IMG/VR virus record: IMGVR_UViG_3300012928_002819
Coordinates: 1-26,771 of that record
DNA from: a virus
Lineage: Duplodnaviria > Caudoviricetes
Reading direction: 5' to 3' (one strand)
Length of the DNA stretch: 26,771 nt
Shown: positions 1,679 to 26,398 of the stretch, one piece after another
Position numbering within the stretch: the first letter of the stretch is position 1
Layout of the letters: each line of letters starts with the position of its first letter
The notes under the pieces: model-generated
Seen by the model: only the letters and a program-made list of their open reading frames with translations
Databases searched by the model: none
Told to the model about the DNA's origin: nothing
Position numbers and translations under genes: made by a program

Positions 1679-3136
1679 ATGTATACTAATCTTCCTATGA
1701 AGCCTCTAGCACCAAACCAAGAAGAGCAAGATAGATGGAATCACTCAGCACTCCGGAAGCGAATGATTATCGGAGCATGGGAGCAAGATCTAGAAGATGA
1801 ACTCGCTAGGCATCTTCCAGCAGATCGGAGAGAGGCTTGGGGTCCTGCAGATCTCTCCTCCAATCCCTTCGAGCAAATCACTAGACAGTTATCTGTTTTA
1901 TATCATGAGGTCCCAGCAGTTACTAATCTGAATGGAGATATCTCCGATCTAGTATCTAGAGAGGGACTTGTTACGAAGGCTGGATTATGGCAGCTCATGC
2001 AGAGAGCCCAGCAGATGGTAATCGGACTCCGAGAGAGCGCGATCCGGATAGATGTTAATCCTCACGTAGTAGGAGCTCCTACTATCGCTCCAGGAATCCA
2101 ATATCGGATTGTTACTCCAGATCTATTATATTGTGAAGCCCATCCGGACCAGCCAGATATCCCCGTATATTATCAGGAGTCTAGACTCCGAGAGCATGAA
2201 GGGAAGCCGGTATGGGTAGCCGATGTACTCGATATTCGGAATCCAGAGGAACCGATCTTCGGAATGTACGAGATTAAGAAGGATGGAAGCCTGGGTAGAG
2301 ATGTATCTGTAGAGTTTATGGGACACCCTACCCATAGAGGAGCGGATTATCCCTATCGAGATGGAGAGGGGAATCCCTTCCTCCCCGTAGTTTTATACCA
2401 TGCAGAAAAAACAGGGTTTTTATGGGATCCTTATAATGCTTCTCAGATGGTGTATGGATCTCTTACTTCTGCTGTTTTATATTCTATGTGGGTGCATCTT
2501 GTTAGAGATGCCTGCTGGAGTCAGAAGTACGTAGCCGGATTATCTGTAGCTGGACTCTCCCAGATCGATCAAAATGAGATAGCCCGGAGATCTTCTATTG
2601 CTACGGATCCGAGCTCTATTCTAGTATTCACTCAAGATCCAGATGCTCAGGGCCAGCCCTTAGTAGGCTCCTTCTCTATTCCTACGGATCCTCATGCTCT
2701 GTTAGAGTCTATCTCTAAATACGAGATGAGAGTAGGATTAGCAGCTGGGCTCTCTCCTTCAGAACTCAGCAGAACAAATGGAGATCCAAGATCTGGATAT
2801 GCTCTAGCAGTCTCCAAAAGTGGACAGAGGGAAGCCCAAAAGAAGTTCGCTCCTGTATTCCGCTTGGGAGATGAGGAACTCTTAGCGAAGACCGCTATCT
2901 TAGCTAATCGCTTCCTCGGAACATCTCTTCCAGAGGATGGATATAGGGTATCCTATCATTCAATGCCATTAACACCGGATGAGATGCGAGCCCAAAGAGA
3001 GGATATAACTGCTAAGATGAGCGCAGGATTAATATCTCCAGTGCAAGCGGTTATGATGATGTATGATGATATGGATGATAGAGAGGCTAGAGAGTATCTA
3101 CTTCAGATCCGGAGAGAGAGAGCGGAGTTCTTATAA
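1679..3136 (+). CDS. Portal protein
   Basis: 485 aa directly after terL; SGYAL motif resembling the SG.AL motif of SPP1-like portals; assigned mainly by synteny and size. Confidence 0.8.
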   Translation: MYTNLPMKPLAPNQEEQDRWNHSALRKRMIIGAWEQDLEDELARHLPADRREAWGPADLSSNPFEQITRQLSVLYHEVPAVTNLNGDISDLVSREGLVTKAGLWQLMQRAQQMVIGLRESAIRIDVNPHVVGAPTIAPGIQYRIVTPDLLYCEAHPDQPDIPVYYQESRLREHEGKPVWVADVLDIRNPEEPIFGMYEIKKDGSLGRDVSVEFMGHPTHRGADYPYRDGEGNPFLPVVLYHAEKTGFLWDPYNASQMVYGSLTSAVLYSMWVHLVRDACWSQKYVAGLSVAGLSQIDQNEIARRSSIATDPSSILVFTQDPDAQGQPLVGSFSIPTDPHALLESISKYEMRVGLAAGLSPSELSRTNGDPRSGYALAVSKSGQREAQKKFAPVFRLGDEELLAKTAILANRFLGTSLPEDGYRVSYHSMPLTPDEMRAQREDITAKMSAGLISPVQAVMMMYDDMDDREAREYLLQIRRERAEFL

Positions 3137-3459
3137 TGATCTGTGAAGAGTGTAAAGAGCCCATCGAAAAGATTAAAGATTCTATCGTAGAGTGGATATC
3201 TTGTGAGGAGTGGGCTCTCTCTATGTATGTTAGATTGGTCCATCCGGGCTGCTGCTACTATGAGAAGCGGAAGGAGATCCTCGAGGAGATGAATGCAAAT
3301 GATCATTGGCTCCCGGTAGTAGATATGGAGGCTCTCTTAGATATTGCATTCGAGATGCCTTGGGATGATAAGCTTCTAGCAGAATCCTCATTTATTCGAT
3401 ATATTACTCAAAGAAACCAAAAAACCAGAGGTACAGCTGATGAAAAAAATAACCCATGA
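3136..3459 (+). CDS. Hypothetical protein, possible zinc-binding (CxxC...HxxC)
   Basis: 107 aa, MICEEC...HPGCC; TAATG-coupled to the portal. Confidence 0.55.
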   Translation: MICEECKEPIEKIKDSIVEWISCEEWALSMYVRLVHPGCCYYEKRKEILEEMNANDHWLPVVDMEALLDIAFEMPWDDKLLAESSFIRYITQRNQKTRGTADEKNNP

Positions 3460-4087
3460 AGGAGTAGAGTATGTACTTAAAGCAGATATCGAAGCTGCTT
3501 TTAAGGATAGAATCTCTAAACTAAGCGCTAGAGCTATTCAAGCGGAGGAAGTCGCTAAGGCTCTCCAGGATACTCTCGATAATCAATCTGGAGAACTTAC
3601 TAAGATCTCTACATTACAAGAGAAGGTATCTACTCTCGAGCAGTCTTTACTGGATGCAGAGAGCAAGTATAGCCGAGTATCTATGTTATCGGATATGGGA
3701 TTTACAGATCCAGATCTTAGAGATGCTGTAGAGTGGGCTTATAGTCGCTCGAATAGCGAAGCTCCTTTGGAGGATTGGATAAAGGGGATAAAAGAAAATC
3801 CAACAGAGGCTCCCTTAGTTCTAAGACCTCATCTTCTAGCGAAGGCATCTCCAGAGAATACAGCAGAAGCCGCTCCAAGTGCAGAAGCCGCTCCCATCCA
3901 AGCAGAAGCGGTAGAGAGTGCTCCCTTAATACCTCCTCGAACGAATACAGGAGCCAAGCCTGCACCGGTACAGAGTGGAGATATTATCTCTCGAGGTCTT
4001 AAGGATGGAGAGTTCTACGAGCAAAATAGAGATGCAATTATAAAGGCTTGGAGACAGCAGCGGCTGCATGGAACGCGATCGATCTAA
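3440..4087 (+). CDS. Capsid scaffolding protein
   Basis: N-terminal coiled coil, Ala/Pro/Glu-rich linker, short C-terminal helix; between portal and capsid; GAGGTAC RBS at 3428-3434. Confidence 0.7.
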   Translation: MKKITHEGVEYVLKADIEAAFKDRISKLSARAIQAEEVAKALQDTLDNQSGELTKISTLQEKVSTLEQSLLDAESKYSRVSMLSDMGFTDPDLRDAVEWAYSRSNSEAPLEDWIKGIKENPTEAPLVLRPHLLAKASPENTAEAAPSAEAAPIQAEAVESAPLIPPRTNTGAKPAPVQSGDIISRGLKDGEFYEQNRDAIIKAWRQQRLHGTRSI

Positions 4088-4102
4088 GATCTAGGAGGTA
4101 CG

Positions 4103-4411
4103 ATGTCTATCGATCTACAGGGGAGTAACACCTTCCCAATAGTGAAAACTATCACAGTATACCAGACAGCTACAGAGGTATTACTTCCTGCTAATGCTAG
4201 GCATCTGCAGATAGGAGCCCAGACTCACAAATTATTTTATTCTACATCTGGGACCGATGGAGCAATACTAGGAGCAGATAAGGACTTTATAGCGAAGGAA
4301 GCTAAGCAAGTATTAAACCTTGGAAGAGGTAGAAATAAGCATGACTCTATTTTTATCTCTACTCAGACTGCAGCCTCTGCTACTGTTACTCTAGTCTTCT
4401 CGGAGGAATAG
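4103..4411 (+). CDS. Small beta-rich virion protein (head decoration-like), paralog 1
   Basis: 102 aa, clearly similar to 7916..8224; GGAGGTAC RBS. Confidence 0.55.
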   Translation: MSIDLQGSNTFPIVKTITVYQTATEVLLPANARHLQIGAQTHKLFYSTSGTDGAILGADKDFIAKEAKQVLNLGRGRNKHDSIFISTQTAASATVTLVFSEE

Positions 4412-4630
4412 ATGCTAGGATATATACCCAGTGTAAACTCGGAGCCCTTAGTACTGAGCTTCTCTAATACCAATCTCATAGTGATTAATCACAATTTCGG
4501 ATATAAACCAATGATCCAGATTATTCTAAGTGATGGAACAATCGCAGAAGGCTCCGTTACTCATAATAGCGAGAATAGAGTTACTATATCTTTCCAAATT
4601 TCACTCTCTGGAGAGATATTATTGAGATAG
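4412..4630 (+). CDS. Small beta-domain protein resembling the C-terminal domain of the adjacent fibre
   Basis: 72 aa; INHNFGYKPMIQ...G...V...N.V.ISF...SG pattern parallels LNHGLGEKIVH...G...V...NNL.V in the next ORF. Confidence 0.55.
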   Translation: MLGYIPSVNSEPLVLSFSNTNLIVINHNFGYKPMIQIILSDGTIAEGSVTHNSENRVTISFQISLSGEILLR

Positions 4631-4679
4631 TATATAGAGCGAGGGAGGGATCCCTCTTAATCTATATATGGAGTCTAAA

Positions 4680-6050
4680 ATGCAATTTCTTGCACCCACA
4701 AATATTTTCGAGGGCGTTGTTCAACTTAATCAAGCCCCTTCAGCTGATAATCATGCGGTTACCCGTTCTTACTTGGAAGCTAATAGCGTAGTCGGTATCG
4801 CTTCAGATTCTGCTAATTATGCCGAGCTCGTTACAGAAGGTGGAGATCTTAAATTAAAGCTTAAGCCTCTTACTATTACAGATGTAGCTGTAGATACTTC
4901 TGCTGCTTCTCTCGCTGCTTGGGTAAGTTCTAACTATACCTCTGGAGATGAGAAACAAGAAGGTGATATCATCATCTTAACAGCTGTCACTGGTCGCGCT
5001 CAGACCTTTATCCATAACGGGGGATCTGCTGGTACTACTGCAGACTTTACAGAGATTGAGGGTGGAGATGTTACGGCTGCTGAGGTTCGAGCTGCTCTCT
5101 CTGCTTCTGCTGGTATTAACTATAATGCTAGTACTGGAGAATTCACTGCAGATCAAGCAGAGATCCGAGGGCTTTTTGCTGCTGGAACTGGACTTGGTTA
5201 TGATAGTTCTAATGGTAGCTTCTCACTTAATGTAGATAGCGATGGTATCTCCGAAGGTTCTAGTAATCTTTACTTTACAGATGCTCGCGCTCGCGGTGCT
5301 ATCTCTGTATCTGGAGCAGGGATCTCATATAATGCTGGTACTGGTGTTATTACTCTTGCTGCTACTTCTGATAACATTAGCGAAGGATCTAGTAATCTTT
5401 ACCATACTACAGCTCGAGTAAGAAGCAGTATCTCTCTTGGAGCAGTATCTTCTCCAGATGTTCAACTCTTGGAATATGATAATTCTAATGGACAATTAAA
5501 GGTTAGAGCCTCTCAAGTCTTTGCTCAGTTCGATGCTGGTACGGGTCTATCTTATGCGGATGGTGTTTATAGCTTGAATGCTTCTACATCTAACGTAGCA
5601 GAAGGATCTAATCTTTACTTTACAGATGCTAGAGCTCGCGCTGCTATCTCTGTAGATGCTGCTGGACTTAACTATAATTCCGGTACTGGTCAGATTACAT
5701 TAACTGCTGATACTGGAGATATCGCAGAAGGTACTAATCTTTACTTTACTACAGCCAGAGCCCAAGCCGCTATTTCTGCAGATCCTGCAGCTGGTAACAT
5801 GGCTACCGTTGCTAGTGGTCAAGTACTTGTAGCTAAGTCTTCATTCCGTAAGACTTTCGCTCCTCAGAACTTGACAGCTAACACCTTTGTAACCTTAAAT
5901 CATGGCTTGGGAGAAAAGATAGTTCACTGCTCAGCATATGACAGCAATGGGGATAAGGTCCAGTTAGACGTACAGCTTACAGATAACAATAACCTTAAGG
6001 TTAAATCTGTAATCAATGTAACCGGAGCCCAGATCGTAGTATCTTTGTAA
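4680..6050 (+). CDS. Repetitive fibre protein (probable head fibre)
   Basis: Ala/Ser/Gly/Thr-rich; four EG(S/T)(S)NLY(F/H)TxAR repeats and G(I/L)xYxxxxG repeats typical of phage fibres; start moved to ATG 4680 (GGAG 6 nt upstream). Confidence 0.7.
   Translation: MQFLAPTNIFEGVVQLNQAPSADNHAVTRSYLEANSVVGIASDSANYAELVTEGGDLKLKLKPLTITDVAVDTSAASLAAWVSSNYTSGDEKQEGDIIILTAVTGRAQTFIHNGGSAGTTADFTEIEGGDVTAAEVRAALSASAGINYNASTGEFTADQAEIRGLFAAGTGLGYDSSNGSFSLNVDSDGISEGSSNLYFTDARARGAISVSGAGISYNAGTGVITLAATSDNISEGSSNLYHTTARVRSSISLGAVSSPDVQLLEYDNSNGQLKVRASQVFAQFDAGTGLSYADGVYSLNASTSNVAEGSNLYFTDARARAAISVDAAGLNYNSGTGQITLTADTGDIAEGTNLYFTTARAQAAISADPAAGNMATVASGQVLVAKSSFRKTFAPQNLTANTFVTLNHGLGEKIVHCSAYDSNGDKVQLDVQLTDNNNLKVKSVINVTGAQIVVSL
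5253..5785 (+). repeat. Four intragenic fibre repeats (GAAGG..TAATCTTTAC..TAC)
   Basis: Copies begin near 5253, 5382, 5601 and 5727; similar at both DNA and protein level. Confidence 0.85.
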
Positions 6051-6070
6051 TCCTCTTACAATCCCTTAAA

Positions 6071-6101
6071 AAGGGCTTCGGATGTACCTCCCCAAGCCCT
6101 T
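6071..6101 (+). ncRNA. Hairpin with anti-RBS loop (candidate regulatory RNA element)
   Basis: Stem AAGGGCTT (6071-6078)/AAGCCCTT (6094-6101); loop contains ATGTACCTCC (6082-6091), the reverse complement of GGAGGTACAT. Function is inferred. Confidence 0.4.
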
Positions 6102-6131
6102 CCCCTCGTTCTCCTCGAGGGGTTTTTTTTT
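6102..6131 (+). terminator. Rho-independent terminator after the fibre gene
   Basis: CCCCTCG-ttctcct-CGAGGGG followed by 9 T. Confidence 0.9.
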
Positions 6132-6135
6132 ATCC

Positions 6136-6164
6136 TTGCTAGTCCTATTTATTTCGTTTATACT
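6136..6164 (+). promoter_or_regulatory. Sigma70-type promoter for the major capsid gene
   Basis: TTGCTA-N17-TATACT immediately after the terminator. Confidence 0.7.
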
Positions 6165-6243
6165 TCTAATGGGTAGGGTCGCTCCCGAAACAGCAGAAGA
6201 GCCCAGATAATGATTTTTTCCCTTTTCTTCTAATGGTGCAATA

Positions 6244-7176
6244 ATGGCAAATGAAATTACTAATAATGGGCTGGTCGGTGATTTAAGACTCGCTCAAATG
6301 ATCTCTGCGGAAATCCGCTTACTTCTTAAGGATTCTGTTAATCTTAAAAATACTCCCTTTATCGATTTTATCGGATCTATTAATGGATCTGGTAGTGACA
6401 CGGTCCGAGTTCGTAAAGCGTTCTTAGATGGTGAAGATGGCTTCTCTGCTTTCACAGGTGCAACCGAAGATGGAGCCGTAGCTAATACTGCTCTCGTAGA
6501 TAGTCACGTAGATGTAGTATGTAAGAGAAACTCTCTTGCTTACTCTATTACTGACTTGGCAACCATGACAGGTATGGGACAAGATATTGACCCGTTCCGT
6601 ATCGCTGAGCACATCTCTAAGTCTTACGATGCTCTCTTCGCTAAACTTACTGCAGCTGTATTCTCTGGATTTACTGCTCAGGTAGGTTCTGCTGCTACTA
6701 TGAGCGTAGATATCTTCCAAGATGCTATCCAAGCTCTCGAGGCTGCTGATTCTAATAAAGGGGCTCCTGGTCCTTATGTCTGTGTATTGCATCCTGCTCA
6801 GATGGCACAATTGCAAGATTCTATCCGCGGAGAGACTGGAGCTGTAGCTTACGCTCCTGCTTCTTTTGAGGCTCTCGCTGCTAAGGGCTCTCACTATAAA
6901 GGCTCTTTTATGGGTGTAGAGATCTATACTAGCTCTTATGTTATCGATGGTGGATCTAACTATCAAGCTGCTATGTTCGCTCCAGGTGCTATCGGTTATG
7001 CTACTGGGATGCCTGCTTCTCTTCCGGGTGCTGCTGAATCTATGCAGATGGGTGAAGTTATGGTAGAGCTGGATCGTTCAGCTGCTAGCGCACTTACTCA
7101 GGTAGTCGGTCATGCTTACCTAGGAATAGCTATTATCAGTGATGATCGAGGAGTAGAGATTGCTACTTTAAGCTAA
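6244..7176 (+). CDS. Major capsid protein (HK97 fold inferred)
   Basis: 310 aa; GSDTVRV, VLHPAQMAQL and GSFMGVEIYTS match typical capsid patterns; strong GCT/TCT/GGT codon bias; own promoter and terminator. Confidence 0.85.
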   Translation: MANEITNNGLVGDLRLAQMISAEIRLLLKDSVNLKNTPFIDFIGSINGSGSDTVRVRKAFLDGEDGFSAFTGATEDGAVANTALVDSHVDVVCKRNSLAYSITDLATMTGMGQDIDPFRIAEHISKSYDALFAKLTAAVFSGFTAQVGSAATMSVDIFQDAIQALEAADSNKGAPGPYVCVLHPAQMAQLQDSIRGETGAVAYAPASFEALAAKGSHYKGSFMGVEIYTSSYVIDGGSNYQAAMFAPGAIGYATGMPASLPGAAESMQMGEVMVELDRSAASALTQVVGHAYLGIAIISDDRGVEIATLS

Positions 7177-7193
7177 TCTATAGATTCTTTTAT

Positions 7194-7224
7194 GGGGAGG
7201 GGCTTCTGCTCTTCCCCTTGTTTT
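7194..7224 (+). terminator. Rho-independent terminator after the capsid gene
   Basis: GGGGAGGGGC-ttct-GCTCTTCCCC then TTGTTTT. Confidence 0.7.
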
Positions 7225-7246
7225 AACTTACAATGAGGTACATTTT

Positions 7247-7906
7247 ATGAGTTTAACTCCCCAGCCTTGGGCCCCGGTCCAGACTAGCCAGCAAGAGCTC
7301 CTCCCAGAGCAGCCAAATCATCCTTTTTTCTATAAATGGCATCCTACCAATTGGACTTATAATTACTTCGAGAAGGAAGTTACGAAGGGTAAAACAACCA
7401 AGATAGAACGCTCGTTTTTCTTTGTACCCAATATCCGGATGGAACATATTATCCCCGGAGTTAATGGAGTACATCAAGTATCCGGAGAACGAGGGAACCC
7501 AGGCTCGAGAATTGGTAATCTACAGCAGAAGGGATGGATCTATCTCGATCCGGGTAAACATCAATATATCCATCAATACAGAGTCCGGAATGGGTTCTAT
7601 CATTGTCCTAAGTGGCAATCGGTCCGAGTAGTAGGAAACCGAGTAATTAAATCCTTCGATAGAGAAGCCTTCCTTAAATGGAGCTGCTCACTGGTATTAG
7701 ATGGAACTCTCCTTCCTATTGAACCTCACTTCTGGGAACTCGAGAGCCTTACACATCTCAAAGCAGTTAACAGAATGCTTAACTCTCAGCATATCCCAGA
7801 GATTAAGGCTAAGATCGATGATCATTACAAGGTTAGAGAAGATATGTTATCATTTATCGAAGCCTTCCAGAAAAAGGGAATCGAACTTTATAAAGAGATT
7901 AAATAG
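7247..7906 (+). CDS. Hypothetical protein (head module)
   Basis: 219 aa ORF with GAGGTAC RBS; no recognised motif. Confidence 0.6.
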   Translation: MSLTPQPWAPVQTSQQELLPEQPNHPFFYKWHPTNWTYNYFEKEVTKGKTTKIERSFFFVPNIRMEHIIPGVNGVHQVSGERGNPGSRIGNLQQKGWIYLDPGKHQYIHQYRVRNGFYHCPKWQSVRVVGNRVIKSFDREAFLKWSCSLVLDGTLLPIEPHFWELESLTHLKAVNRMLNSQHIPEIKAKIDDHYKVREDMLSFIEAFQKKGIELYKEIK

Positions 7907-7915
7907 GAGTCAATA

Positions 7916-8224
7916 ATGGCAATCGATCTAAGAAGTCAAAATAATTACCCAATTGTAAAAGTAGTATCAATTACTAATACAGTATGCTTAGAGGTACAAT
8001 TACCAAGTAGCTCTAGGAATGTAAAAATTGCATGCAATACAGAAGATATATTTTTTACTTCTGTAGGTACAGATGGAGTAACTCTTGGAGCGGATAAAGC
8101 TCTGATAAAAGTAAATGAATATTATAGTCAAAAATTAGCGAGAGGTAATAATAGAATCGATTCTATTTTCTTGCAGTCATCAGCAGCTCCAGCTACTGCT
8201 ACTTTAATATTTGATGAGGAATAG
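7916..8224 (+). CDS. Small beta-rich virion protein (head decoration-like), paralog 2
   Basis: 102 aa; shares IDL, PIVK, GTDG, LGADK, DSIF and terminal F.EE with 4103..4411; AGGAG RBS. Confidence 0.55.
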   Translation: MAIDLRSQNNYPIVKVVSITNTVCLEVQLPSSSRNVKIACNTEDIFFTSVGTDGVTLGADKALIKVNEYYSQKLARGNNRIDSIFLQSSAAPATATLIFDEE

Positions 8225-8227
8225 GTA

Positions 8228-8995
8228 ATGACTACTAGCACTCCATATGCTCCTCAGATCAAGATCCCAGAGCTCCTCGAGCGCGGGAAGTCTAATACTA
8301 CAACTCTTCCGATCTTTCGAGATGGTGTGCTAGCAGTTCCTACAGAAGTAAGATATACACTCTTTAAACCAGATCAGACCAAGCTAGTAGATAATGCTCT
8401 CGCTACCTTCCCTGCTAATATCCCTACTTACGTACACTCTTCTTCGAATTTGGATGAGAGCCTGGTACTCGGAGAGGGATATCTCCAGGAGTGGAAGATT
8501 ACACTTGTAGGAGAGGTTTATACTTTTCGTAGAATGGCAGCAGTAGTATTAAGAAGGTTATATCCTGTAGTATCGGATGGAGATCTTACTGCTACTTATT
8601 CTCAACTCGCAGATATCAGACCTTCCAATTTAACTTCTTATCAGACTTATATAGATGAGGCTTGGTTTACTCTGGTACAGAGAATGAGGACCGAAGGAGG
8701 AGGGATGGAGTATCTAGTAATGAGCCCGGAGGCCTTCCGTGCTGCTCATCAGAATCTAGCTCTCTATTACATCTTCCGAGACTTCCATTCTAGCCTTGGA
8801 CAGAGTAACGGAAGATATCTAGATCTAGCTAATGAGCACTTCTCTCAATATAAAGATGAATGGAAGCGGATAAACTTTATCTATGACCATAATCACGATG
8901 GCCAGACAGGTAACCCTAATGATCGAGTAGCTAAGCAGCCTGTTATCTTCCTCAATGGTAATGGAACCTTCTCTCGCAGATTCCGGAGAAGATAA
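8228..8995 (+). CDS. Probable head-tail adaptor/connector
   Basis: 255 aa; position after the head genes; helical C-terminal half (YIDEAW...ALYYIF...RYLDLA); synteny-based. Confidence 0.5.
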   Translation: MTTSTPYAPQIKIPELLERGKSNTTTLPIFRDGVLAVPTEVRYTLFKPDQTKLVDNALATFPANIPTYVHSSSNLDESLVLGEGYLQEWKITLVGEVYTFRRMAAVVLRRLYPVVSDGDLTATYSQLADIRPSNLTSYQTYIDEAWFTLVQRMRTEGGGMEYLVMSPEAFRAAHQNLALYYIFRDFHSSLGQSNGRYLDLANEHFSQYKDEWKRINFIYDHNHDGQTGNPNDRVAKQPVIFLNGNGTFSRRFRRR

Positions 8996-9423
8996 TGGCA
9001 GAATCTCTCTCCAGTATCCGAAAGGCAATAGCAGCGAAGATAGAGACTCTCTCCGGGTTCAAAGAATCTAAGCATACTCCGGACTTCTTCGGAAGAACAG
9101 AGAATACCGTAGCCCATAAAGCATTCTCAATCTCTGTAGCCTCCTCTGCAGCAATGGAAGAGAGACAGAGAAGAGCGGTTGGAGTCTATCTCTCTACTCC
9201 AATGCAAGTTCTATTCTCTTTTCGATTAAGACCTCTCGATATCTATCCTACTGATTACGATGCTAGCCTAGATGCTGAAGAGCTGGTAATCAATAAGGTG
9301 TTAGAGGCTTATTCTACGGATAATCAGTTTACAATTAGATATACTGCATCCGAGAGAACGGTTACAGATTCTCAAGAGTATATATTGATTACTCTATCGT
9401 TCAATATACTACACACTATCTAA
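8995..9423 (+). CDS. Probable tail terminator/completion protein
   Basis: 142 aa immediately before the tail tube; IRKAIAAKIETL N-terminal helix followed by beta strands; synteny-based. Confidence 0.5.
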   Translation: MAESLSSIRKAIAAKIETLSGFKESKHTPDFFGRTENTVAHKAFSISVASSAAMEERQRRAVGVYLSTPMQVLFSFRLRPLDIYPTDYDASLDAEELVINKVLEAYSTDNQFTIRYTASERTVTDSQEYILITLSFNILHTI

Positions 9424-9468
9424 TCCAATCGGTTAAAATATTAATCATAATCCCCCCTGGAGGCTGTA

Positions 9469-9960
9469 ATGGCATATTCAACAATTCCCAAGACTAAAAG
9501 AGATGGAGTTATAACCCTTCTCGATAATGGTGGTGTATCTCTCGAAGTAGCCTTCGAAGATGGTAACTTTACCTTCTCAGATCCCCAGCAATTCTCTGAG
9601 CTCGTAGTTATGGATCGCGGTAATTTCTCAGCAATCCGTAAGCAAGATGAGCAAGCGAAAACAGGTTCTTTCTCCTTTCACTTTAGACAATTTACTGATG
9701 CCTCAGAAGCAGGAAGTATCCGAGATTTTATTACTCAATCTGGATTCTACTCTGGGAATACTTCTACTGGATTAAGCGGTACTCCATTTATCGAGCAGTA
9801 TTGTATCGATATCAAGTACTTAGCAGATAGTCCAGATGCAGCAGAAGCAGATCACTTCGTTACATTGTCTAAGTGTATATGTTCTTTAGACTTCTCAGAA
9901 GGAGATCCAAGCAGCTTTACTCTGAACTTCACATGTTACGGTGGATTGGTAGCAGCATAA
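9469..9960 (+). CDS. Major tail tube protein
   Basis: 163 aa, beta-rich (GSFSFHF, FTLNFTCYG); GGAGG RBS; directly upstream of the frameshifting chaperone. Confidence 0.7.
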   Translation: MAYSTIPKTKRDGVITLLDNGGVSLEVAFEDGNFTFSDPQQFSELVVMDRGNFSAIRKQDEQAKTGSFSFHFRQFTDASEAGSIRDFITQSGFYSGNTSTGLSGTPFIEQYCIDIKYLADSPDAAEADHFVTLSKCICSLDFSEGDPSSFTLNFTCYGGLVAA

Positions 9961-9979
9961 AATAGCGTAGGAGGTACAT

Positions 9980-10345
9980 ATGCTATTAGATCTTAAAAAA
10001 CTTGGACAGCATGAGGGGAGGTTACCCTCCTCGATTGCTACTTGCTTAGACTTCGTATCCATATGGGGAGCGCATCCCAACCGAGCCCAGCTTGGAAGGA
10101 TATGTGCAGCTGCTATAGCAGTATCCATAGATCATAAAAGAGTGCTTCCAGCATATCCGGTAACGAGTGGAGATCCTATTGCCTTCGGTTATAAGATCCT
10201 GGATCGATTGCTTGATGCTGGAGTTACTCCTGCTAAGATCTACGAGATGGGAAGCGAAGTTCTATTAGAGATGATGCGAGTTATCCCATCCGAGCAAGAG
10301 GTAGAAGAGAAGGCAAATTTTACGCAAGAGGGAGAGGAGGGCTAG
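9980..10345 (+). CDS. Tail assembly chaperone (gpG-like)
   Basis: 121 aa after the tail tube; slippery heptamer A AAT TTT near the 3' end; GGAGGTACAT RBS. Confidence 0.75.
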   Translation: MLLDLKKLGQHEGRLPSSIATCLDFVSIWGAHPNRAQLGRICAAAIAVSIDHKRVLPAYPVTSGDPIAFGYKILDRLLDAGVTPAKIYEMGSEVLLEMMRVIPSEQEVEEKANFTQEGEEG

Positions 10346-10536
10346 ATCTCCTCGCTCTTCGGATCTCTCTTCGATGGGGGAAGGATCCTCTCTGGTATTA
10401 CTCTCTCTCTCCAGATCTCCGAGTATCGCTGCTAGCTGAGTATAGGCTAGCAAATGAAGATCCAAAAGCATCTAAGGATAGACAAGAGCGCATAAAAAGG
10501 GCTAGAATGGAGGAGATAATACGGGGCAATCGATGA
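10315..10536 (+). CDS. -1 frameshift extension of the tail chaperone (gpGT-like), missing from the ORF track
   Basis: A AAT TTT at 10315-10321; the -1 frame reads YARGRGGLDLLALRISLRWGKDPLWYYSLSPDLRVSLLAEY...IRGNR to TGA 10534-10536, filling the gap and overlapping the next ATG. Confidence 0.8.
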   Translation, partial: KFYARGRGGLDLLALRISLRWGKDPLWYYSLSPDLRVSLLAEYRLANEDPKASKDRQERIKRARMEEIIRGNR

Positions 10537-11006
10537 GCGTTAAAATCAATAAAGGAAGAGCAGGAATCCGGATCGATACAGATCTCCAACAGTTCTATAC
10601 GGGCTTCCTAGATACAGTAGCTCCGAATGCTCGCAAGGTTATAGAGGGTAGCCTTAAGAAGATAGAAGCGGATGCTATTAAAGATTGGCCAGTACGGAAG
10701 CCGATTATCCGTAAAACTGCAGAAGGAGAGGTTAGGTTCTTTCGTAAGACCTCGAAGGGATCTTGGAAGAAGTTCGAGAGGGGCTTCCGGATAACTCCCG
10801 AGGGAGGCTTCGAGGCCTTCCTCCGGAATAGGGCTCCTTACTCTTGGGCTATAAAGTTCGGAGTAGATTCCGAGAATAATAGAGGGCAAGATATTATCCA
10901 GCCCCAGGGGAAGAAGGCATCTCAAGAATTACTTATTAAACCTCATAGAAAAGCAGCTAATAAGATAGTCAAGGCTCTAGCTGATGATCTTATCCGGAGG
11001 ATATAA
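10533..11006 (+). CDS. HK97 gp10-like neck/tail component
   Basis: Basic 157 aa; A.KDWPV...T...W and NRAPYSWAIKFG resemble the gp10 aPv.TG.../Ya.yvEfG pattern. Confidence 0.55.
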   Translation: MSVKINKGRAGIRIDTDLQQFYTGFLDTVAPNARKVIEGSLKKIEADAIKDWPVRKPIIRKTAEGEVRFFRKTSKGSWKKFERGFRITPEGGFEAFLRNRAPYSWAIKFGVDSENNRGQDIIQPQGKKASQELLIKPHRKAANKIVKALADDLIRRI

Positions 11007-13018
11007 TGGCAGAAGAGAAAAGATCTATCAATATCGCTTATAAAGCAGATCTTAAGGATCTCATTAATAAACTAAAGCAGATGCCGAATGTAACAGAGCA
11101 GGAAGCCCGGAAGATGGTATCTGCTCTCGATAGGCAACTTAAGCAAGCCGAGAAGGCTGCTAAGAAGAGCGCAGATGCTAGCGCGAAGGCTGCTAAGAAT
11201 GCAGCAGCAGCAGCTCGGAGAGGTTCTAAAGAATTCGATGATATGGCTACTGCTGCTAGGAGAGCTGAAGAACGCTTGGAGAGTGTAGGAGAAGCATCTG
11301 GAGATATCGATAGGGGCTTCTCTTCCATAGGGCTCGCTCTTCGAGGGGTTAATCCTCAGCTCGCAGAAGCAGCAGATGGATTAGCAGATGCCTTCGCAGT
11401 TACAGAAGGGTTGACTATGTCCTTCGCTGCTCTTAATCCTCTTGTAATCGCTGCTGGTGTTGCGATTGGAGCATTAACTCTAGGATATGTAGCCCATCAA
11501 GCAGAACTCGAGAAGGCTAGGCAGTTAACACTTGATTTAAGAGATGCTCAAAAATCTTTGATTGAGAGCCAAGAGCAACAGCAGAAAAATTTAGTTGATG
11601 CAGCATCCAAATTAAGAGAGCAGCGATTAGAATTTAAACTTCTTACGGGACAGATAACCCAATATGAATTCGATCTAATTAAGGCTGGAGAAGCAGCTAA
11701 CGAAGCATTCAAGGGAAATTTAGAAGCAGTAGAAGTAAACATATCTGAAACTAATATGTTATTGGCTACAGTCCAGAGTCTTAAGGATGCTTACCTCGCT
11801 GCAGGTTCTTCTAATGTAGTGCTCTCAGAAGGAGAGAAGGATAAATTACGGACTCTCCAATTACAAAATAAATCGGTGTCTGATAGCATCGATCTAACAA
11901 AAGAGGGACTTAGGCAGGCTGCAGAACTTGGAAAAATAGAGAAGGGACTGCTAGCAGATCTCGCTAATCAAGAAAACCAGAGAGCAGCGATCGAGGCTAT
12001 GCAGTCAGAAGCGGTAGAGACTGCACAAGAGATGGTAACTCTCGAAAAAGAATTGGCAGATGCTACAGAGGCAGCAGCAGCAGCGAAGGAGAAGGGAGTT
12101 AAGCCTGCTAAAAAGAGTGTAGATTTAGTAAAAGAAGAACTTGAGGCTATGGAAGCCTTAATCCAAGCAGAAAATAGATTTTTTGATAGACAGATAGATG
12201 CCAATAAAAAACTAGAGGACTTCCAGATTCAAGCTTTTATGAGCGAGGAGCAGAGAGAGTCTCTAGCCTTCGGTAATAGAATAGAAGAGATAGAGAGACT
12301 CGGAGAGATTACAGAGCAGGAAGAACTAGCAGCAGATATCATAAAGCAGATGTTACATAATAAAGATCTCGAGCGGATAGAAGAACTCAAGGATAAGGAA
12401 GAGGAACTCCAGGCCAAAAGGAGAGAAGGCCTTAAAGAGAATCTCGAGGGAGCGTTAACTCTTGGAGGAACGCTCGCAGAACTTACAGAGATGCGGATCA
12501 AGGGTAACGAAATAGATGTTAAGGCTATGCAAGATAAGCAGGAAGAGATAGCCGCGATGAGCGATATAGAGAGGGCTGCATATGAGAAGGAGCAGAAGAA
12601 CCTAAGAGGGCTATTTAACTTCCGTAAGGGTATGGCATTAGCCGAGATCGCAATGGGTACAGCAGAGGCAGTAGTAGCCGCTCAGAAGTTAATCTCTCCA
12701 TTCAATGCTATCCAATCTGCTCTCGCAGTAGCTACCGGGGTAGCTCAGGCCGGAGTAGTAATGAGCCAGCAGATGCCTAGCTTCCATATGGGAGGAATGG
12801 CCCCGGATGAGGCTAATGCTCGAGTATTGAGAGGAGAGGCTATACTAGATAGGGCTACAGTCCGAAGGATCGGAGGAGAGCAAGGAGTAAGGAATCTCCA
12901 GCAGGGAGGCTCCGGAAGCGTTAATACTGTAGTAATTCAACCCTTTAAGCACTTCGGGAGATTCTCTAAGGAACTAGGAATCTCAAGGGCTAAACCTGTA
13001 GGAATAAGAGGATACTAA
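11006..13018 (+). CDS. Tape measure protein
   Basis: 670 aa Ala/Glu-rich helical protein with hydrophobic segments; C-terminal FHMGG...VLRGEAIL typical of tape measure C-termini. Confidence 0.88.
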   Translation: MAEEKRSINIAYKADLKDLINKLKQMPNVTEQEARKMVSALDRQLKQAEKAAKKSADASAKAAKNAAAAARRGSKEFDDMATAARRAEERLESVGEASGDIDRGFSSIGLALRGVNPQLAEAADGLADAFAVTEGLTMSFAALNPLVIAAGVAIGALTLGYVAHQAELEKARQLTLDLRDAQKSLIESQEQQQKNLVDAASKLREQRLEFKLLTGQITQYEFDLIKAGEAANEAFKGNLEAVEVNISETNMLLATVQSLKDAYLAAGSSNVVLSEGEKDKLRTLQLQNKSVSDSIDLTKEGLRQAAELGKIEKGLLADLANQENQRAAIEAMQSEAVETAQEMVTLEKELADATEAAAAAKEKGVKPAKKSVDLVKEELEAMEALIQAENRFFDRQIDANKKLEDFQIQAFMSEEQRESLAFGNRIEEIERLGEITEQEELAADIIKQMLHNKDLERIEELKDKEEELQAKRREGLKENLEGALTLGGTLAELTEMRIKGNEIDVKAMQDKQEEIAAMSDIERAAYEKEQKNLRGLFNFRKGMALAEIAMGTAEAVVAAQKLISPFNAIQSALAVATGVAQAGVVMSQQMPSFHMGGMAPDEANARVLRGEAILDRATVRRIGGEQGVRNLQQGGSGSVNTVVIQPFKHFGRFSKELGISRAKPVGIRGY

Positions 13019-13020
13019 AA

Positions 13021-16000
13021 ATGGCAAATATAACTCCAGACTATTTAAGAGGCTTCCTCATTCCGAGTATCTCCATCTCGAAGGATAATCTATGGGATGC
13101 TCAATCCCAATTCACCCAAGCGAACGCGAGAGCAGGTATCCCAGAAGCACAGAGCGAAGGAGTTAACTTAACTCTCTCTTCTATCGGTTCTCAAGGTGAA
13201 GATATAACTATCGAAACCATGCAAGGAGGGCTCCCAGGAGAGGCTCGATTTAAATGGAGCGGAGCGGATTCTATAGAGATGGGGAAGGATGCAGCCCATA
13301 TCCTTACGGAGAGCGGATATTGGAAGTTCTCTTCTAGTACAGCTGTAGGATCTTATTTTTACTCAGATTGTACGAGTAATCTAGATGGAGTTATCTGGGT
13401 AATCTCGGAGATTCTAGACTCCTCCAATAGATTTACAATTACTTTACATAGGCAGAAGGAGAACGGATCTATAGATGCTGTTAAAACCTTCGAGAGCATT
13501 CTATTTATCGGTACTCCTTCGAGCTTGGGCCTCCCTTCGATTACTAGATTACAGGATGGTAGCCTTCTAGTAGCCTACTTCCAATATACATCCGAGAACG
13601 CGGTTAATATAAAAGTACATAGATCTCTAGATGAAGGGGATAACTGGAGCCAGATCTCCTCGAGAGGTCTAGTAGATTCTCTAGCATCTAGCGCGAATGA
13701 GCCTAAGAAGATGAAGTTAATCACTGTAGATAATACAGTACTCCTCTTTATTGAACTTGAAACTAGCAATACAAACAGATTAGCCCAGTACATCTCGAGA
13801 GATGGAGGGACTACTTTTAATCTCGTAGATTCTATCTCAGATATAAGTGATGGATATTTTCACCAGCCGAGCCCCGTAGCCCTTCCGGATGGTACTATCG
13901 GAGTAGCCTATATATCTGATACTCAAGAGTTAAATTTTACTAAGATTCCTAATCCGGGTATCCGGTTATCTAGTGCAGTATGGCTATCAGCTAATGAGAA
14001 TACTGTAGCAGTAGCTACAACCTTCTCCAGTATTACCTCTAATGTAATGAGCGGAGGTAATGTTACAGCCTTTTTTCAAGATGGGCTCATCTGGGTAATC
14101 GCTCAAGAGTTCGGAGATGGGAGGCTTATTGGATTCTATTCTGATGATATGGGTACTTCTTGGAGATATGCAAGCGGAGGAGGTTCTACGGTATCGAATG
14201 GATACATATTAGATTACGGAAGTAACTCCGATAGATTACAGAATCTCTCATCGTGTGTACATGAGGGAAGGGCTAAGATATTTGGACACAATACTAATAG
14301 TGTATGGAGCCTAGCCCTCGGAGGTTACTCCTCCTTCTCATATCCTGCGAGATCGGATAATCCTTCGTTCTACGAGTATCTAGTATGGGAATCTACTTAT
14401 ATACCTGTAATGCTACCTGGTTCCTCTTCTCAGTACACTACTACAGGAGCCGGAACCCAATCTCTAGATGGAGAGGGATTAAATATCTCTACCTCTGGGA
14501 ATATCCGGAAGTATGTTTACACTCATTCCGGAGGCTATTTTACAGAAGGCCAGGTTATCAGATTGAGATTAAAAGTAGATCAGAACTCTAGTGTTTTACT
14601 AGATCATATAGCCTTAAAGATATTCCAAGATGATACAACCAATAGCACAGAGCTGCAGCTTAGATTCTCTACTACGACTATACAAGTTAGAGACTCTGCA
14701 GGAGTTAAGGCTACTATCTCTCATGATATGACAGCTAGCACAGAGATAGTTATAGGGCTCCAAGATACAGATGCAGAGATCTACTATAGAACAGCAGATG
14801 GAGATCAGGCTAAGAAGTGGACTCTCCAATCCATCTCCGGTATCACAAAGGGAGCGAGCGGAGCTGGTAATACTGTTGAGTGGGGTCATTTTGCATTCTC
14901 TGGCCTTCTTACTTTTGAATCTCATTGGCAAGAAGTCTCGATTACATCTGGAGAGCAGGCTGGGCTCGGTAAGTTCGATCTACGAGGAGCGAAGTATCCT
15001 CCCCTCGGAGAGTATCAGTACATAGATCAAGGGCTAGCGATCACAGCGAAGGATGCTCCAGCGCGAGGAGAAGATATCTATAAGATTGCTACTCGATTCG
15101 ATTATCCTATTGATAATATTTTCCATGGAATATCCCTCTCTCCGAGAGTTACTTGGAGATCTTCTAACGATACAGTATTAGCCCGGATCCCTCTTTTCAT
15201 AGATCCGAAGGTCCAAGCAACGGAGAAGAGCTTGGGCTTAAGTGATGTACTCGGAGTACATCTTGCTAATACCAACTTCCGGAGATTCTCTCTCAATAGC
15301 TGGACCGGGGCCGCTTGGGTAACTCTTGCGGATGTAGATATCAGCGAAGGATTTAACGGAACCTATATAAAGAAGGGCAATACTCTAATATCTAACGATA
15401 CCGGGAAGAAGTTCTTACTCCATTATGGGGAGGCTATTGGATGGAGAGCAGAACTTACGAGCGGAGAGACTACGAAGATAGTTAAAATCAGAATGAATAG
15501 CGAGGGCATCTGGACCAATAGCAGCGGACTTAAGCAGACTGTACTCCAGTACGATACAGATCTTACAGATCCTGCTACTATTCCAGCCTCTGGGACTTTC
15601 CGATTAATCCCAGATCGGATAACCTTCCTTAAGAGCAGGCTCGATGGAGTTAACCTTGGGCAATATGCTCTAGCAATAGAGATTCCGGTACAGGATACTC
15701 TCGAGGGATACTTCCAGATCGGATCTCTTCTTATGGGGTCGGTAGCCTTCCCTGCTCCGCAATATCAGAGAGGAAGAAGCATCTCTTACTCTCCCAATAT
15801 CCAAGCCCAAGAGACTCTAGATGGAATGTTCTTTGCTCGCAAGATGAGCGAAGGAAGGAGAACAGCTTCTATAGCTTGGACAGAACCCATAGACACTACT
15901 AGATTATTCTCTCTTAGTCCTGACTACTGGCAGATATCGAATACAGCAGGAGCCCAGCCTATAGCCAATTATGGAGATCCTTATCTGATGAATGGAATCT

Positions 16001-16224
16001 TTAGATACTTGAGTAACCAAGAGCCTCTTGTATATCTTCCTTCTATAGATGTAGCTGCATATCGAACCGGGCTAGATGGTACTGATGAGATTATTCTAAA
16101 CCGAAGAGCGCAGCATATGCTCGCGAGAACTACTGGAGAGGTATCTGTAGAGAGTGTAATAGGGGAAGAGATGGTGGATGAGATGTTCCGAGTAGCTACA
16201 GTTAATCTCGAGGAGATCGAGTAA
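13021..16224 (+). CDS. Large tail-tip protein with Asp-box (BNR) beta-propeller region
   Basis: 1067 aa after the tape measure gene; Asp-boxes SLDEGDNW, SRDGGTTF, SDDMGTSW. Confidence 0.7.
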   Translation: MANITPDYLRGFLIPSISISKDNLWDAQSQFTQANARAGIPEAQSEGVNLTLSSIGSQGEDITIETMQGGLPGEARFKWSGADSIEMGKDAAHILTESGYWKFSSSTAVGSYFYSDCTSNLDGVIWVISEILDSSNRFTITLHRQKENGSIDAVKTFESILFIGTPSSLGLPSITRLQDGSLLVAYFQYTSENAVNIKVHRSLDEGDNWSQISSRGLVDSLASSANEPKKMKLITVDNTVLLFIELETSNTNRLAQYISRDGGTTFNLVDSISDISDGYFHQPSPVALPDGTIGVAYISDTQELNFTKIPNPGIRLSSAVWLSANENTVAVATTFSSITSNVMSGGNVTAFFQDGLIWVIAQEFGDGRLIGFYSDDMGTSWRYASGGGSTVSNGYILDYGSNSDRLQNLSSCVHEGRAKIFGHNTNSVWSLALGGYSSFSYPARSDNPSFYEYLVWESTYIPVMLPGSSSQYTTTGAGTQSLDGEGLNISTSGNIRKYVYTHSGGYFTEGQVIRLRLKVDQNSSVLLDHIALKIFQDDTTNSTELQLRFSTTTIQVRDSAGVKATISHDMTASTEIVIGLQDTDAEIYYRTADGDQAKKWTLQSISGITKGASGAGNTVEWGHFAFSGLLTFESHWQEVSITSGEQAGLGKFDLRGAKYPPLGEYQYIDQGLAITAKDAPARGEDIYKIATRFDYPIDNIFHGISLSPRVTWRSSNDTVLARIPLFIDPKVQATEKSLGLSDVLGVHLANTNFRRFSLNSWTGAAWVTLADVDISEGFNGTYIKKGNTLISNDTGKKFLLHYGEAIGWRAELTSGETTKIVKIRMNSEGIWTNSSGLKQTVLQYDTDLTDPATIPASGTFRLIPDRITFLKSRLDGVNLGQYALAIEIPVQDTLEGYFQIGSLLMGSVAFPAPQYQRGRSISYSPNIQAQETLDGMFFARKMSEGRRTASIAWTEPIDTTRLFSLSPDYWQISNTAGAQPIANYGDPYLMNGIFRYLSNQEPLVYLPSIDVAAYRTGLDGTDEIILNRRAQHMLARTTGEVSVESVIGEEMVDEMFRVATVNLEEIE

Positions 16225-17921: not shown

Positions 17922-17962
17922 TATTTCCCTCCTTTCATAAGATAACGAGGTATATTAGCCTT

Positions 17963-18538
17963 ATGATAGTATTCATAGATAGACAGCATGCAGGGAAGCC
18001 AAATAACCCAGAAGATAGAGGAGCCTCTGTAGAGCCCTTATCCTTTGGACTAGGACTAGAAGCAATGTATACAGGGTATCTATCTCTCATGATAGAAGAG
18101 AAGTTACTAGAGAACGGAGTTAAGGTTCTTCCCATCTCGGATGGATTCTACCCAGATAGGCACAAAAGAGTAAACGAGTACTCCAAGCGATTTAAGAACG
18201 AAGAGCAGGTATATCTCGCTCTCCATCTTAATGCAGGAGGAGGAGATTACTCTAGTTTTTTCCATATGGGATCCACAGAAGGAAGCGATCTAGCCTCTGC
18301 GATATGTGACAAGATGAGAGAGGCAGCTCTACCCGGTCTAGTTAGATGCCTTCCGAAGAGATGTTCTTCTGGAGACTGGACTAAGAATGCATGGTATACG
18401 ATTAAAGGAGTAGGAGATCCGATTGCTATCTGCTGCGAGCCTCTGTTCATGGATACCCATAGAGATCTATTAAATCTAGAATCCCTTAGAATAATCGCTA
18501 ATGCGATTGCTACCGGGATAATCTCCTGGAGTCTGTAA
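17963..18538 (+). CDS. Endolysin, N-acetylmuramoyl-L-alanine amidase (Amidase_3-like)
   Basis: Zn-ligand motifs IDRQHAG, E, LALHLNA and catalytic-like CCEPLFMD. Confidence 0.85.
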   Translation: MIVFIDRQHAGKPNNPEDRGASVEPLSFGLGLEAMYTGYLSLMIEEKLLENGVKVLPISDGFYPDRHKRVNEYSKRFKNEEQVYLALHLNAGGGDYSSFFHMGSTEGSDLASAICDKMREAALPGLVRCLPKRCSSGDWTKNAWYTIKGVGDPIAICCEPLFMDTHRDLLNLESLRIIANAIATGIISWSL

Positions 18539-18855
18539 TGGAAGAGCCCTTAATCAATATCCTTCTTAATGGAGGAGCTAATATAGCCTTCGCTGCCTTC
18601 CTCTATATGCAGAACCAGCAGCTACAGAAGCGAGCAGATGAGCGAGAACTAAAACAGGATAAGCGGGAAGCAGATATCCGGGCTCGATACGATAAGGTAA
18701 TATCTGATATGTACGAGAGAGAAGATGCTATCCGGAGAGAATTAGTCCAAGAGATTAACGATCTAGATAAGAAGGTTACTACTCTAGAGACTAAGATCCA
18801 GCATATCTTCAAAATAGTAGATGAGATTAAAGCGCAGTTTTTAAGGGCAGGATAA
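18538..18855 (+). CDS. Holin-like membrane protein
   Basis: One N-terminal hydrophobic helix plus coiled coil; TAATG-coupled to the endolysin. Confidence 0.55.
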   Translation: MEEPLINILLNGGANIAFAAFLYMQNQQLQKRADERELKQDKREADIRARYDKVISDMYEREDAIRRELVQEINDLDKKVTTLETKIQHIFKIVDEIKAQFLRAG

Positions 18856-19354: not shown

Positions 19355-19377
19355 ATCGTAACCTCCGATACGATAGC

Positions 19378-19446
19378 AATATACCATAATACTATATGAA
19401 ATAAATCTAATTTTATTGATACACCTATAAAAAACTATGCTATAGT
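19378..19446. promoter_or_regulatory. Divergent extended -10 promoters
   Basis: + strand TGcTATAGT at 19438-19446; - strand TGgTATATT near 19379-19387; AT-rich intergenic region. Confidence 0.6.
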
Positions 19447-19487
19447 TAAGTATATCCAATAAGGGATATAAACAAGAGGTACAAAAA

Positions 19488-19739: not shown

Positions 19740-19749
19740 TCAATCAATC

Positions 19750-19769
19750 TGGGGAGGGCTTCCTCCCCA
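19750..19769 (+). other. GC-rich intergenic hairpin without U-tract
   Basis: TGGGGAGG-gctt-CCTCCCCA. Confidence 0.6.
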
Positions 19770-19789
19770 TCTAACTAGAGGTACAAACA

Positions 19790-21077: not shown

Positions 21078-21681
21078 TCCAAGCATTAATCTCCATCTCG
21101 GATGCTCTCTCCAGGCTATGAGAGAGATGGAAGATAACCAATATGATCTCGCTATCGTAGATCCTCCCTTCGGTATCGGTAATTTTGTACAGTCTAATAG
21201 AGGATCACCAGTTAAATGGAATGATAGTATCCCTTCTCCTTTATATTTTACAGAGCTTAGAAGGGTCAGTAGGCATCAGATTATTTTTGGAGCGAATTAC
21301 TATAATTGTTTTTCTGGAAAATCTGGTGCAATTGTATGGATAAAAAACCAACCTATTCCAAATTTTAGTAAAGCTGTAATAGCATCATGCACCTACCATA
21401 AAAAGATAGAGGTATATACTCAAACTTGGACTAATTTTGTAGCTAATGGAAGAACTGGTATACATGCATGCGAGATGCCGGTAGATCTTTATAAATGGAT
21501 ATTAGAAAACTATGCGAAGGATGGAGATAAGATACTGGATACTCATCTCGGATCCGGTTCCATTGCTTGCGCTTGTTATGATCTGGGATTCGATCTCGAT
21601 GCTTGGGAACTCGATCCGGAGTACTTCGAGAGAACCCTATCCAGGTATAACGAGCACTCCAAGCAATCTAAATTATTCTAG
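21067..21681 (+). CDS. DNA N6-adenine/N4-cytosine methyltransferase, beta-class motif order
   Basis: Motif IV DPPF near the N-terminus; motif I ILDTHLGSGS near the C-terminus; start moved to ATG 21067. Confidence 0.88.
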   Translation: MRNDPSINLHLGCSLQAMREMEDNQYDLAIVDPPFGIGNFVQSNRGSPVKWNDSIPSPLYFTELRRVSRHQIIFGANYYNCFSGKSGAIVWIKNQPIPNFSKAVIASCTYHKKIEVYTQTWTNFVANGRTGIHACEMPVDLYKWILENYAKDGDKILDTHLGSGSIACACYDLGFDLDAWELDPEYFERTLSRYNEHSKQSKLF

Positions 21682-21690
21682 GAGGTACAG

Positions 21691-22856: not shown

Positions 22857-22882
22857 ACACAATAAAAAATACGGAGGTACAT

Positions 22883-26361: not shown

Positions 26362-26398
26362 ACAAAATATTAACACTTATCCAAAAGTAGAGGTACAA

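Follow-up and report, generated by a model that had tools for sequence, protein, structure and literature searches.

The locus and its genes

The locus raises the question of why the 3′ end of a phage structural gene should carry a hairpin whose loop is the complement of a ribosome-binding site (RBS) motif that the same phage places before other genes. The window, meaning the whole stretch of 26,771 nucleotides that was analysed, is a 26.8-kb phage contig with a G+C content of 43% and almost every gene on the plus strand. Its proteins include family matches to a terminase, an endolysin, a RusA-like resolvase, a methyltransferase, and a helicase/primase. Two longer minus-strand open reading frames, 18827-19459 and 24877-25236, lie in gaps of the plus-strand map, and GGAGG-type sites precede internal ATGs. 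A 14.6-kb prophage-like contig in a Rhodospirillaceae bin was the sole match of its kind for a host and is too weak to name one.

The anti-RBS element sits at the 3′ end of a fibre-like structural gene (4680..6050, plus strand), which matches the structural-protein family PHROG 697 (E 3.6e-21) and the tail-fibre family PHROG 33244 (E 2.2e-6). The major capsid gene (6244..7176, plus strand; 310 aa) matched two annotated major capsid proteins with E values of 9e-8 and 7e-4. The 215-aa gene at 3440-4087 (plus strand) is termed the putative scaffold gene by position only, and sequence and profile searches gave no homologue for it. The plus-strand gene at 9980-10345 has a slippery heptamer (window 10316-10324) and an open -1 frame that continues after the gene to about 10536. 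This arrangement, which we take to be the mark of a tail-assembly chaperone, is conserved in all 12 loci compared, and the heptamer is identical in 11 of them.

Gene X (7247-7906, plus strand; 219 aa) follows the capsid gene and belongs to a large unnamed family, with relatives in 434 clusters of which none is named. None of the 78 relatives scanned, from a relative list of 150, matched PHROGs, and gene X found no match in Pfam, annotated phages, or the Atlas. Its structural model (pLDDT 86.9) consists of a long beta hairpin and C-terminal helices. The fold gave no PDB match, and its single match was an uncharacterised marine-virus fold. Two related 102-aa genes, 4103-4411 and 7916-8224, had been labelled decoration-like, a label backed by no family match; the RBS motif precedes 4103-4411 only.

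An anti-RBS hairpin and a predicted terminator

The fibre-like stop codon is followed by a spacer (6051..6072, plus strand) ending in an A run that partly joins the stem of hairpin 1. Hairpin 1, the anti-RBS hairpin (6071..6101, plus strand), has an 8-bp stem (6071-6078/6094-6101) and a 15-nt loop (6079-6093). The loop contains the seed (6082..6091, plus strand), whose 7-nt core, GUACCUC (6084-6090), complements the shared RBS motif. Hairpin 2 and its T run (6102..6131, plus strand) comprise a 7-bp GC stem (6102-6122) and nine T (6123-6131), the GC-rich stem and subsequent U run of an intrinsic terminator, which is predicted to set the 3′ end of the RNA. The initial annotation had described just such an 8-bp stem and loop with a terminator directly after it, and the sequence bears out its coordinates.

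The fold has a z-score of -3.88, and none of 200 shuffles was equally good. The loop had been described as exposed. This holds for the ensemble of the window, where the 7-nt core is unpaired with a mean probability of 0.81, but not for the minimum-energy fold, which closes three inner pairs over part of the seed. Opening the seed (6082-6091) costs 1.5 kcal/mol, and across 47 elements the median unpaired probability of the loop is 0.86. An asserted likeness to the 16S rRNA 3′ end is retained for the CCUC(C) core and lost for the GGAU part, which relatives do not keep. The terminator loop (6109-6115) is likewise C/U-rich in the clade of the window and complements GGAGAA-type sites; it is not conserved family-wide.

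Matching sites in the window

The motif GAGGTAC occurs 11 times in the window against 2.29 expected, a count reached by none of 100 shuffles. Its sole minus-strand occurrence is the loop itself. Nine of the ten plus-strand copies stand directly before a start codon, and one is intragenic (7991). No minus-strand ATG follows the motif within the 120 nt inspected, as first reported, and a minus-strand gene behind the motif was discarded as an explanation, none being present.

The match lengths given by the initial annotation were confirmed at all nine plus-strand sites. The two 10-nt matches are the RBS of the tail-assembly chaperone gene (9970..9979), which extends up to the start codon, and that of a 112-aa helix-turn-helix-like gene (22873..22882; HTH_26, E 0.0022, below the cut-off). 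The 9-nt matches belong to gene X (7235..7243) and to a 280-aa primase-related gene (21681..21689; weak primase PHROG, E 2.6e-4), which is also a target in G003. Matches of 8 nt precede the putative scaffold gene (3428..3435), the 102-aa gene at 4103-4411 (4094..4101), an 83-aa early-region gene (19476..19483), a 35-aa early-region open reading frame at 19790 (19778..19785), and a 108-aa gene (26390..26397). Every other tested start matches over 6 nt or fewer, including the fibre-like RBS at 4 nt and the capsid RBS at 3 nt.

There are 24 plus-strand sites with at least 7 nt of loop complement, nine of which lie before starts, including both 10-nt and both 9-nt matches; the windows before starts make up 1.8% of the sequence. 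When 29 starts were scored with correction for accessibility, the nine best were the nine motif genes (-7.6 to -12.5 kcal/mol), followed by the endolysin at -7.1, the capsid at -5.5, and the other 18 at -3.0 kcal/mol or weaker. The endolysin RBS (17945-17962), next in rank after the motif genes, has a 6-nt match with a wobble extension, and the endolysin is a possible weak target affecting lysis timing.

Conservation among relatives

Four protein-based scans and one pattern scan yielded 331 stored sequences, duplicates included, of which 251 have a capsid relative and 230 have enough upstream DNA. Hairpin and terminator recur in about 208 of these 230 related capsid loci. The element passed the filter in 197 loci, the window included, and was missed in 33. 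Nine of the missed loci plainly carry it, another is probably a duplicate of the window, and a further one retains the element in degraded form. Of the rest, one has upstream DNA that is unrelated, and 21 are distant and lack the element. The 79 pattern-scan loci without a capsid match were dismissed as chance matches.

All 18 aligned elements share the same 7-nt core while their stems vary, and 47 distinct elements place differing stems around a fixed loop. In the 18-sequence alignment, six of ten stem pairs changed on both sides, and 37 cells carry both-side changes compared with 18.0 in shuffles. In the same alignment the structure scored better than all slid controls, at one column by a narrow margin. 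The helices of hairpin 2 with its T run are also kept, with 91% and 72% of cells paired in two helices. The stems therefore vary with compensation, as had been looked for, and the loop is conserved where the RBS motif is kept; its loss from such relatives had been named as grounds for rejecting a regulatory role. Hairpin and terminator close the packaging/fibre gene block, with a loop that is conserved and co-varies with its target sites. The hairpin is a real, selected feature.

Loop and target sites change together

The 49 representatives fall into 12 loop-core types, with 13 changes on the capsid tree. Where the loop changes, the RBSs of the putative scaffold, gene X, and the chaperone change too, so that the proposed co-variation of loop and RBS is found across relatives. 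The RBS set of each loop type pairs better with its own loop, with a double-centred diagonal of -3.9 kcal/mol that was reached in 0 of 200,000 permutations, a p-value that is too small because loop types share ancestry. Two core positions pair by construction because the site register required purine-GG. At four loci, a C-for-U change in the loop is matched by G-for-A sites, and a loop found at a single locus is answered there by an equally singular 9-nt site; in both cases the RBS was as predicted from the loop. Natural compensatory changes between loop and RBSs are thus present among these phages.

The oppositions in 121 loop-site pairs show wobble in one direction. Loop C stands opposite G in 12 of 12 cases and loop U opposite A in 104 and G in 5, while loop G stands opposite U in 16 and C in 8, and loop A opposite U in 84 and C in 3. 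All three A/C pairs come from L254, whose matching loop is in the capsid terminator. One-way wobble of this kind is what RNA-RNA pairing by a plus-strand transcript predicts. Independent-pair tests at three core positions went in the predicted direction in 2 of 2, about 1.9 of 3, and 2 of 2 instances and never in the opposite one, at counts for which significance is unattainable; two flank positions gave little signal in these tests. The loop of the deepest clade (L093, L094, L253) is an anti-Shine-Dalgarno sequence of generic type and matches the private motif poorly.

The set of matching genes has a constant and a variable part. A duplex of -9 kcal/mol or better forms in 97% of 37 representatives for the putative scaffold, 98% of 48 for gene X, and 97% of 36 for the chaperone, and in 68% of 38 for the 102-aa gene at 4103-4411, a variable target. 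The corresponding share is 0-7% at the fibre-like, capsid, terminase, and portal starts and 37% at the tube start. Median duplex energies are -12.4, -12.4, and -14.3 kcal/mol for the three constant targets against -5.4 for the fibre-like gene, -4.7 for the capsid, and -7.0 for the tube. The tube RBS reads GAGGC in 18 of the 29 lineages with a loop unable to pair with it and in 1 of the 7 in which pairing would be possible, which hints at avoidance, from few lineages. Seven further near-complete records each carry their own motif at starts (e.g., 7/12, 7/11, 5/7, and 4/10), and the scaffold is always among the motif genes while the early genes vary. The class of scaffold, chaperone, early, and replication genes originally proposed therefore stands as a shared motif set, but its constant members are three morphogenesis genes, joined by early and replication genes that differ between lineages. 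What the seed fits is the phage-private extension of the RBS and not the 16S tail.

The complement in distant relatives

Fourteen loci were listed without the element, of which two are cut short, one has no parsed start, and 11 are testable. In 9 of the 11, a hairpin in the capsid 3′ UTR contains an 8-12 nt complement of the gene X RBS, and none of the control windows (278-291 for each locus) matches as well. The same shared motif precedes the scaffold and chaperone genes where these are present. These loci carry four unrelated motifs, all wholly unlike that of the main group. L329 and L139 have no RBS complement in the capsid 3′ UTR. In L254, L255, and L096, the matching loop is in the capsid terminator and has a 10-nt match to the chaperone RBS.

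Several of these loci are built differently from the window. L254, L255, L096, and L095 each have a pair of anti-RBS hairpins that differ in their loops; the first precedes the capsid promoter and the second forms the capsid terminator. The fibre-like gene is absent from that place in these loci. The first hairpin of L255 and L096 matches the RBS of an upstream 421-aa gene. For five distant loci, the best fold predicted hides the complement (unpaired probability 0.03-0.12), and the terminator fold that exposes it lies 0.8-4.6 kcal/mol higher. The capsid 3′ UTRs of L210, L136, L164, L179, and L149 have two near-equal folds, a seed-exposing terminator and a seed-hiding fold that uses the bases right after the capsid stop codon. 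Such a two-fold 3′ UTR could couple seed release to capsid translation. The capsid 3′ UTRs of L137 and L155 contain the RBS motif in both orientations, with the sense copy immediately upstream of the antisense one.

These relatives also bear on whether the element is an ordinary back-to-back terminator pair whose likeness to the RBSs is due to chance or to a host 16S tail mirrored by both. The core does contain the universal anti-Shine-Dalgarno sequence, C/U-rich loops are common here, hairpin 2 included, and the deepest clade is generic. A host 16S tail with the required extension is unsupported, since a scan of 185,579 species genomes, many of them without the 16S end, returned one match that was not a 16S gene. 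The motif changes among phages of 58-68% capsid identity, which a nearly fixed 16S tail cannot explain, and the unrelated motifs of the distant loci cannot follow such a tail. In the main group, the capsid 3′ UTR rarely matches the gene X RBS (2/48 at 7 nt, never longer), whereas the element region does so in 39 of 48. The co-variation already largely refutes an ordinary terminator pair, and we regard it as very improbable.

Strand and transcript

The stem does not by itself fix the strand of the RNA. By folding energy, the minus-strand hairpin is the more stable one in 37 of 47 elements, and internal stem oppositions number 13 for G-T and 7 for A-C (p 0.26). The A run is longer than its partner T run in 41 of 49, which suggests that hairpin 1 may double as a minus-strand terminator. 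One can therefore envisage a minus-strand RNA in which the hairpin ends antisense transcription and the loop mimics the RBS motif, as a decoy for a protein that recognises this motif at gene starts. The more stable minus-strand folds agree with this, as does an A run that exceeds the need of the stem and would read as a U tail. The energy bias, however, probably follows from the C/A-rich flanks, and a protein model does not predict one-way wobble. In L254, L255, and L096, moreover, the complement forms the loop of a terminator on the plus strand, followed by its T run, and motifs that differ wholly between lineages would call for a protein of very labile specificity. A minus-strand decoy is thus improbable, and the strand is taken to be plus because of the loop-target wobble and the plus-strand terminators of the relocated copies.

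A predicted capsid promoter (6136..6164, plus strand) comes directly after the terminator and is the top-scoring site of the window, with a counterpart in 43 of 49 representatives. With the promoter at this position, hairpin and capsid gene would belong to separate transcripts. Across 48 representatives, no conserved internal promoter was found in the 400 nt at the 3′ end of the fibre-like gene. A dedicated promoter for a separate small RNA was rejected, as the best scores have a median of 6.0 against 14.2 for the capsid promoter and their positions are scattered. The RNA would therefore be the 3′ portion of the upstream message or a fragment derived from it. As in 3′-UTR-derived small RNAs, the terminator is shared with the upstream gene; the core lies 16-55 nt past the stop codon in 47 representatives, and the terminator is next.

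The available RNA data are contigs from four runs of one sample and cover a small share. There are 20 RNA contigs on 3000-11000 and 3 on 11000-26771, and none lies over the hairpin, a count that is uninformative for a short RNA. Contigs from three runs of the sample begin at 6171, a weak hint in favour of the capsid promoter. At this predicted start of the capsid message, a structured leader (6171-6205) is conserved in 233 of 236 loci and has no Rfam match. The Shine-Dalgarno sequence of the capsid gene is weak, and the leader is a candidate translational enhancer or antiterminator.

Proposed mode of action

Since the loop and its sites have changed together, the RNA likely turns down translation of the matching gene set. 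On the sequence evidence, our favoured reading, which we consider probable, is that the loop pairs with the private RBS motif of the putative scaffold, gene X, the chaperone, and some early genes, so that the RNA blocks their translation by an antisense mechanism. A plus-strand transcript would stop at the terminator, and the loop would be presented by the full-length message or by a 3′ piece of roughly 70-80 nt processed from it. The loop would form 7-11 nt of pairing with the Shine-Dalgarno core and the spacer; it would act in trans where the gene is on another transcript and possibly in cis at the scaffold. The duplex would lie too near the start codon for initiation, resulting in repression. 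As late transcripts build up, the assembly helpers and early proteins would be turned down, while synthesis of the capsid, fibre-like, and tail-tube proteins would continue, as their sites do not match.

Pairing is 7-11 nt long in 111 of 118 pairs (median 8). In 64 of the 118, no more than 3 nt separate the duplex from the start codon, and the distance varies up to 10 nt. Pairing of this length that ends near the start codon points to occlusion of ribosome loading. Repression is described for the eight-nucleotide anti-Shine-Dalgarno seed of NfeR1 (PMC10746234) and for a 7-nt 3′-UTR motif of icaR (PMC3868564).

It is counter-intuitive that genes on which assembly depends should be repressed. 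Large amounts of scaffolds and tail chaperones are required, which would suit a loop that stabilises its target messages or loads ribosomes as an adaptor or surrogate anti-Shine-Dalgarno, raising the output of the assembly helpers. Raised output fits all of the co-variation evidence as well, and some lineages keep the loop match even where their motif has moved away from a good Shine-Dalgarno. It fits poorly with a duplex that ends 0-3 nt from the start codon in 62 of 118 pairs, at a distance variable to 10 nt, with the complement in L198 that spans the last 9 nt before the start codon, and with the avoidance of the match by the highly needed capsid and tube genes. We consider raised output unlikely.

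The pairing might also act mainly in cis, with the 3′ end folding back, in the way put forward for icaR, on the RBSs of its own long or read-through transcript and the other matches being incidental. The scaffold and 102-aa genes are upstream in the same gene block, the complement in distant relatives is within about 100 nt of the gene X RBS, and the proposal for icaR leaves cis and trans open (PMC3868564). Gene X and the chaperone, however, lie beyond a strong terminator and a new promoter, yet they co-vary as tightly as the scaffold, and the motif of each lineage is present at early-region genes. A mainly cis role is therefore distinctly unlikely.

Relation to known RNAs

The element was compared with systems described in PMC12197685, PMC4615179, PMC3868564, PMC10746234, PMC12571901, PMC2115188, and the CyaR preprint (bioRxiv 10.1101/2024.10.08.617194). 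It shares with NfeR1 and the cuckoo RNAs (ar14, CcsR, RSs0680) of Alphaproteobacteria a variable stem under a conserved, unpaired anti-Shine-Dalgarno loop (PMC4615179, PMC10746234), and NfeR1 is described as repressing through about 8 nt of pairing at translation starts (PMC10746234). Cuckoo RNAs are presented as host regulators with two to four adjacent hairpins, each with CCUCCUCCC in its loop (PMC4615179). The phage element, in contrast, lacks this repeated CCUCCUCCC arrangement and has a single seed hairpin with a GUACCUC core plus a terminator, and its loop is lineage-specific and co-varies with phage genes.

The icaR mRNA of Staphylococcus aureus is reported to block ribosome loading through a 7-nt anti-Shine-Dalgarno motif in its 3′ UTR (PMC3868564). 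Its single target is its own message, whereas the constant targets of the phage element number at least three and lie on different predicted transcripts. Pairing of the phage element with its own gene is not seen, as the fibre-like RBS reaches -9 kcal/mol in 0 of 41 representatives. The c4 antisense RNA of phages P1 and P7 is described as carrying loop complements that block translation near the RBS, with a specificity that varies between related phages (PMC12197685). It controls the antirepressor (ant) message and immunity (PMC12197685), whereas the sites matched here precede scaffold-like, unknown, chaperone, and early genes, that is, morphogenesis and early genes spread over the genome. No antirepressor match was found among the 35 window proteins. 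In CyaR of enterobacteria, a short hairpin presents a conserved seed to the ompX Shine-Dalgarno for pairing, and CyaR is portrayed as a stand-alone host small RNA with its own promoter (bioRxiv 10.1101/2024.10.08.617194). Unlike the phage element, it has no private, co-evolving RBS code. The phage element has no CyaR sequence-family match.

Searches of Rfam returned only anti-hemB (RF02837) for the window, at 26.8 bits against a gathering threshold of 49.5, and this identity was rejected as far below threshold. Five related loci gave no match to Rfam, whose families include C4, CyaR, and ar14. The element thus works like NfeR1, CyaR, icaR, and c4 and has the defining features of none of them. 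No description of it was found in searches of mostly open-access literature on anti-Shine-Dalgarno and phage RNAs; the 38 unassigned phage small RNAs of the review and the large structured-RNA catalogues could hold it. The portion of the review that served for comparison (PMC12197685) names no phage RNA that addresses a class of its own messages through one shared RBS.

Implications

A broader proposal, which we put forward tentatively as a serious possibility, is that the element belongs to an RNA address code. Assembly-helper and early genes would share a private RBS barcode that evolves freely, and a matching loop, carried at the 3′ end of an abundant late message and able to move from fibre block to capsid terminator, would switch this class off while virion proteins continue to be made. 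The seed, targets, non-targets, and natural compensatory variants are all predicted from the sequence, which makes the proposal testable with simple reporters.

Phage small RNAs with known targets are few. If true, the address code would be an undescribed layer of phage developmental control, through which a small phage could balance assembly helpers against virion proteins with no need of a regulatory protein. It would also offer natural orthogonal RNA-RBS pairs, and the RBS barcode would help classify unknown genes such as gene X.
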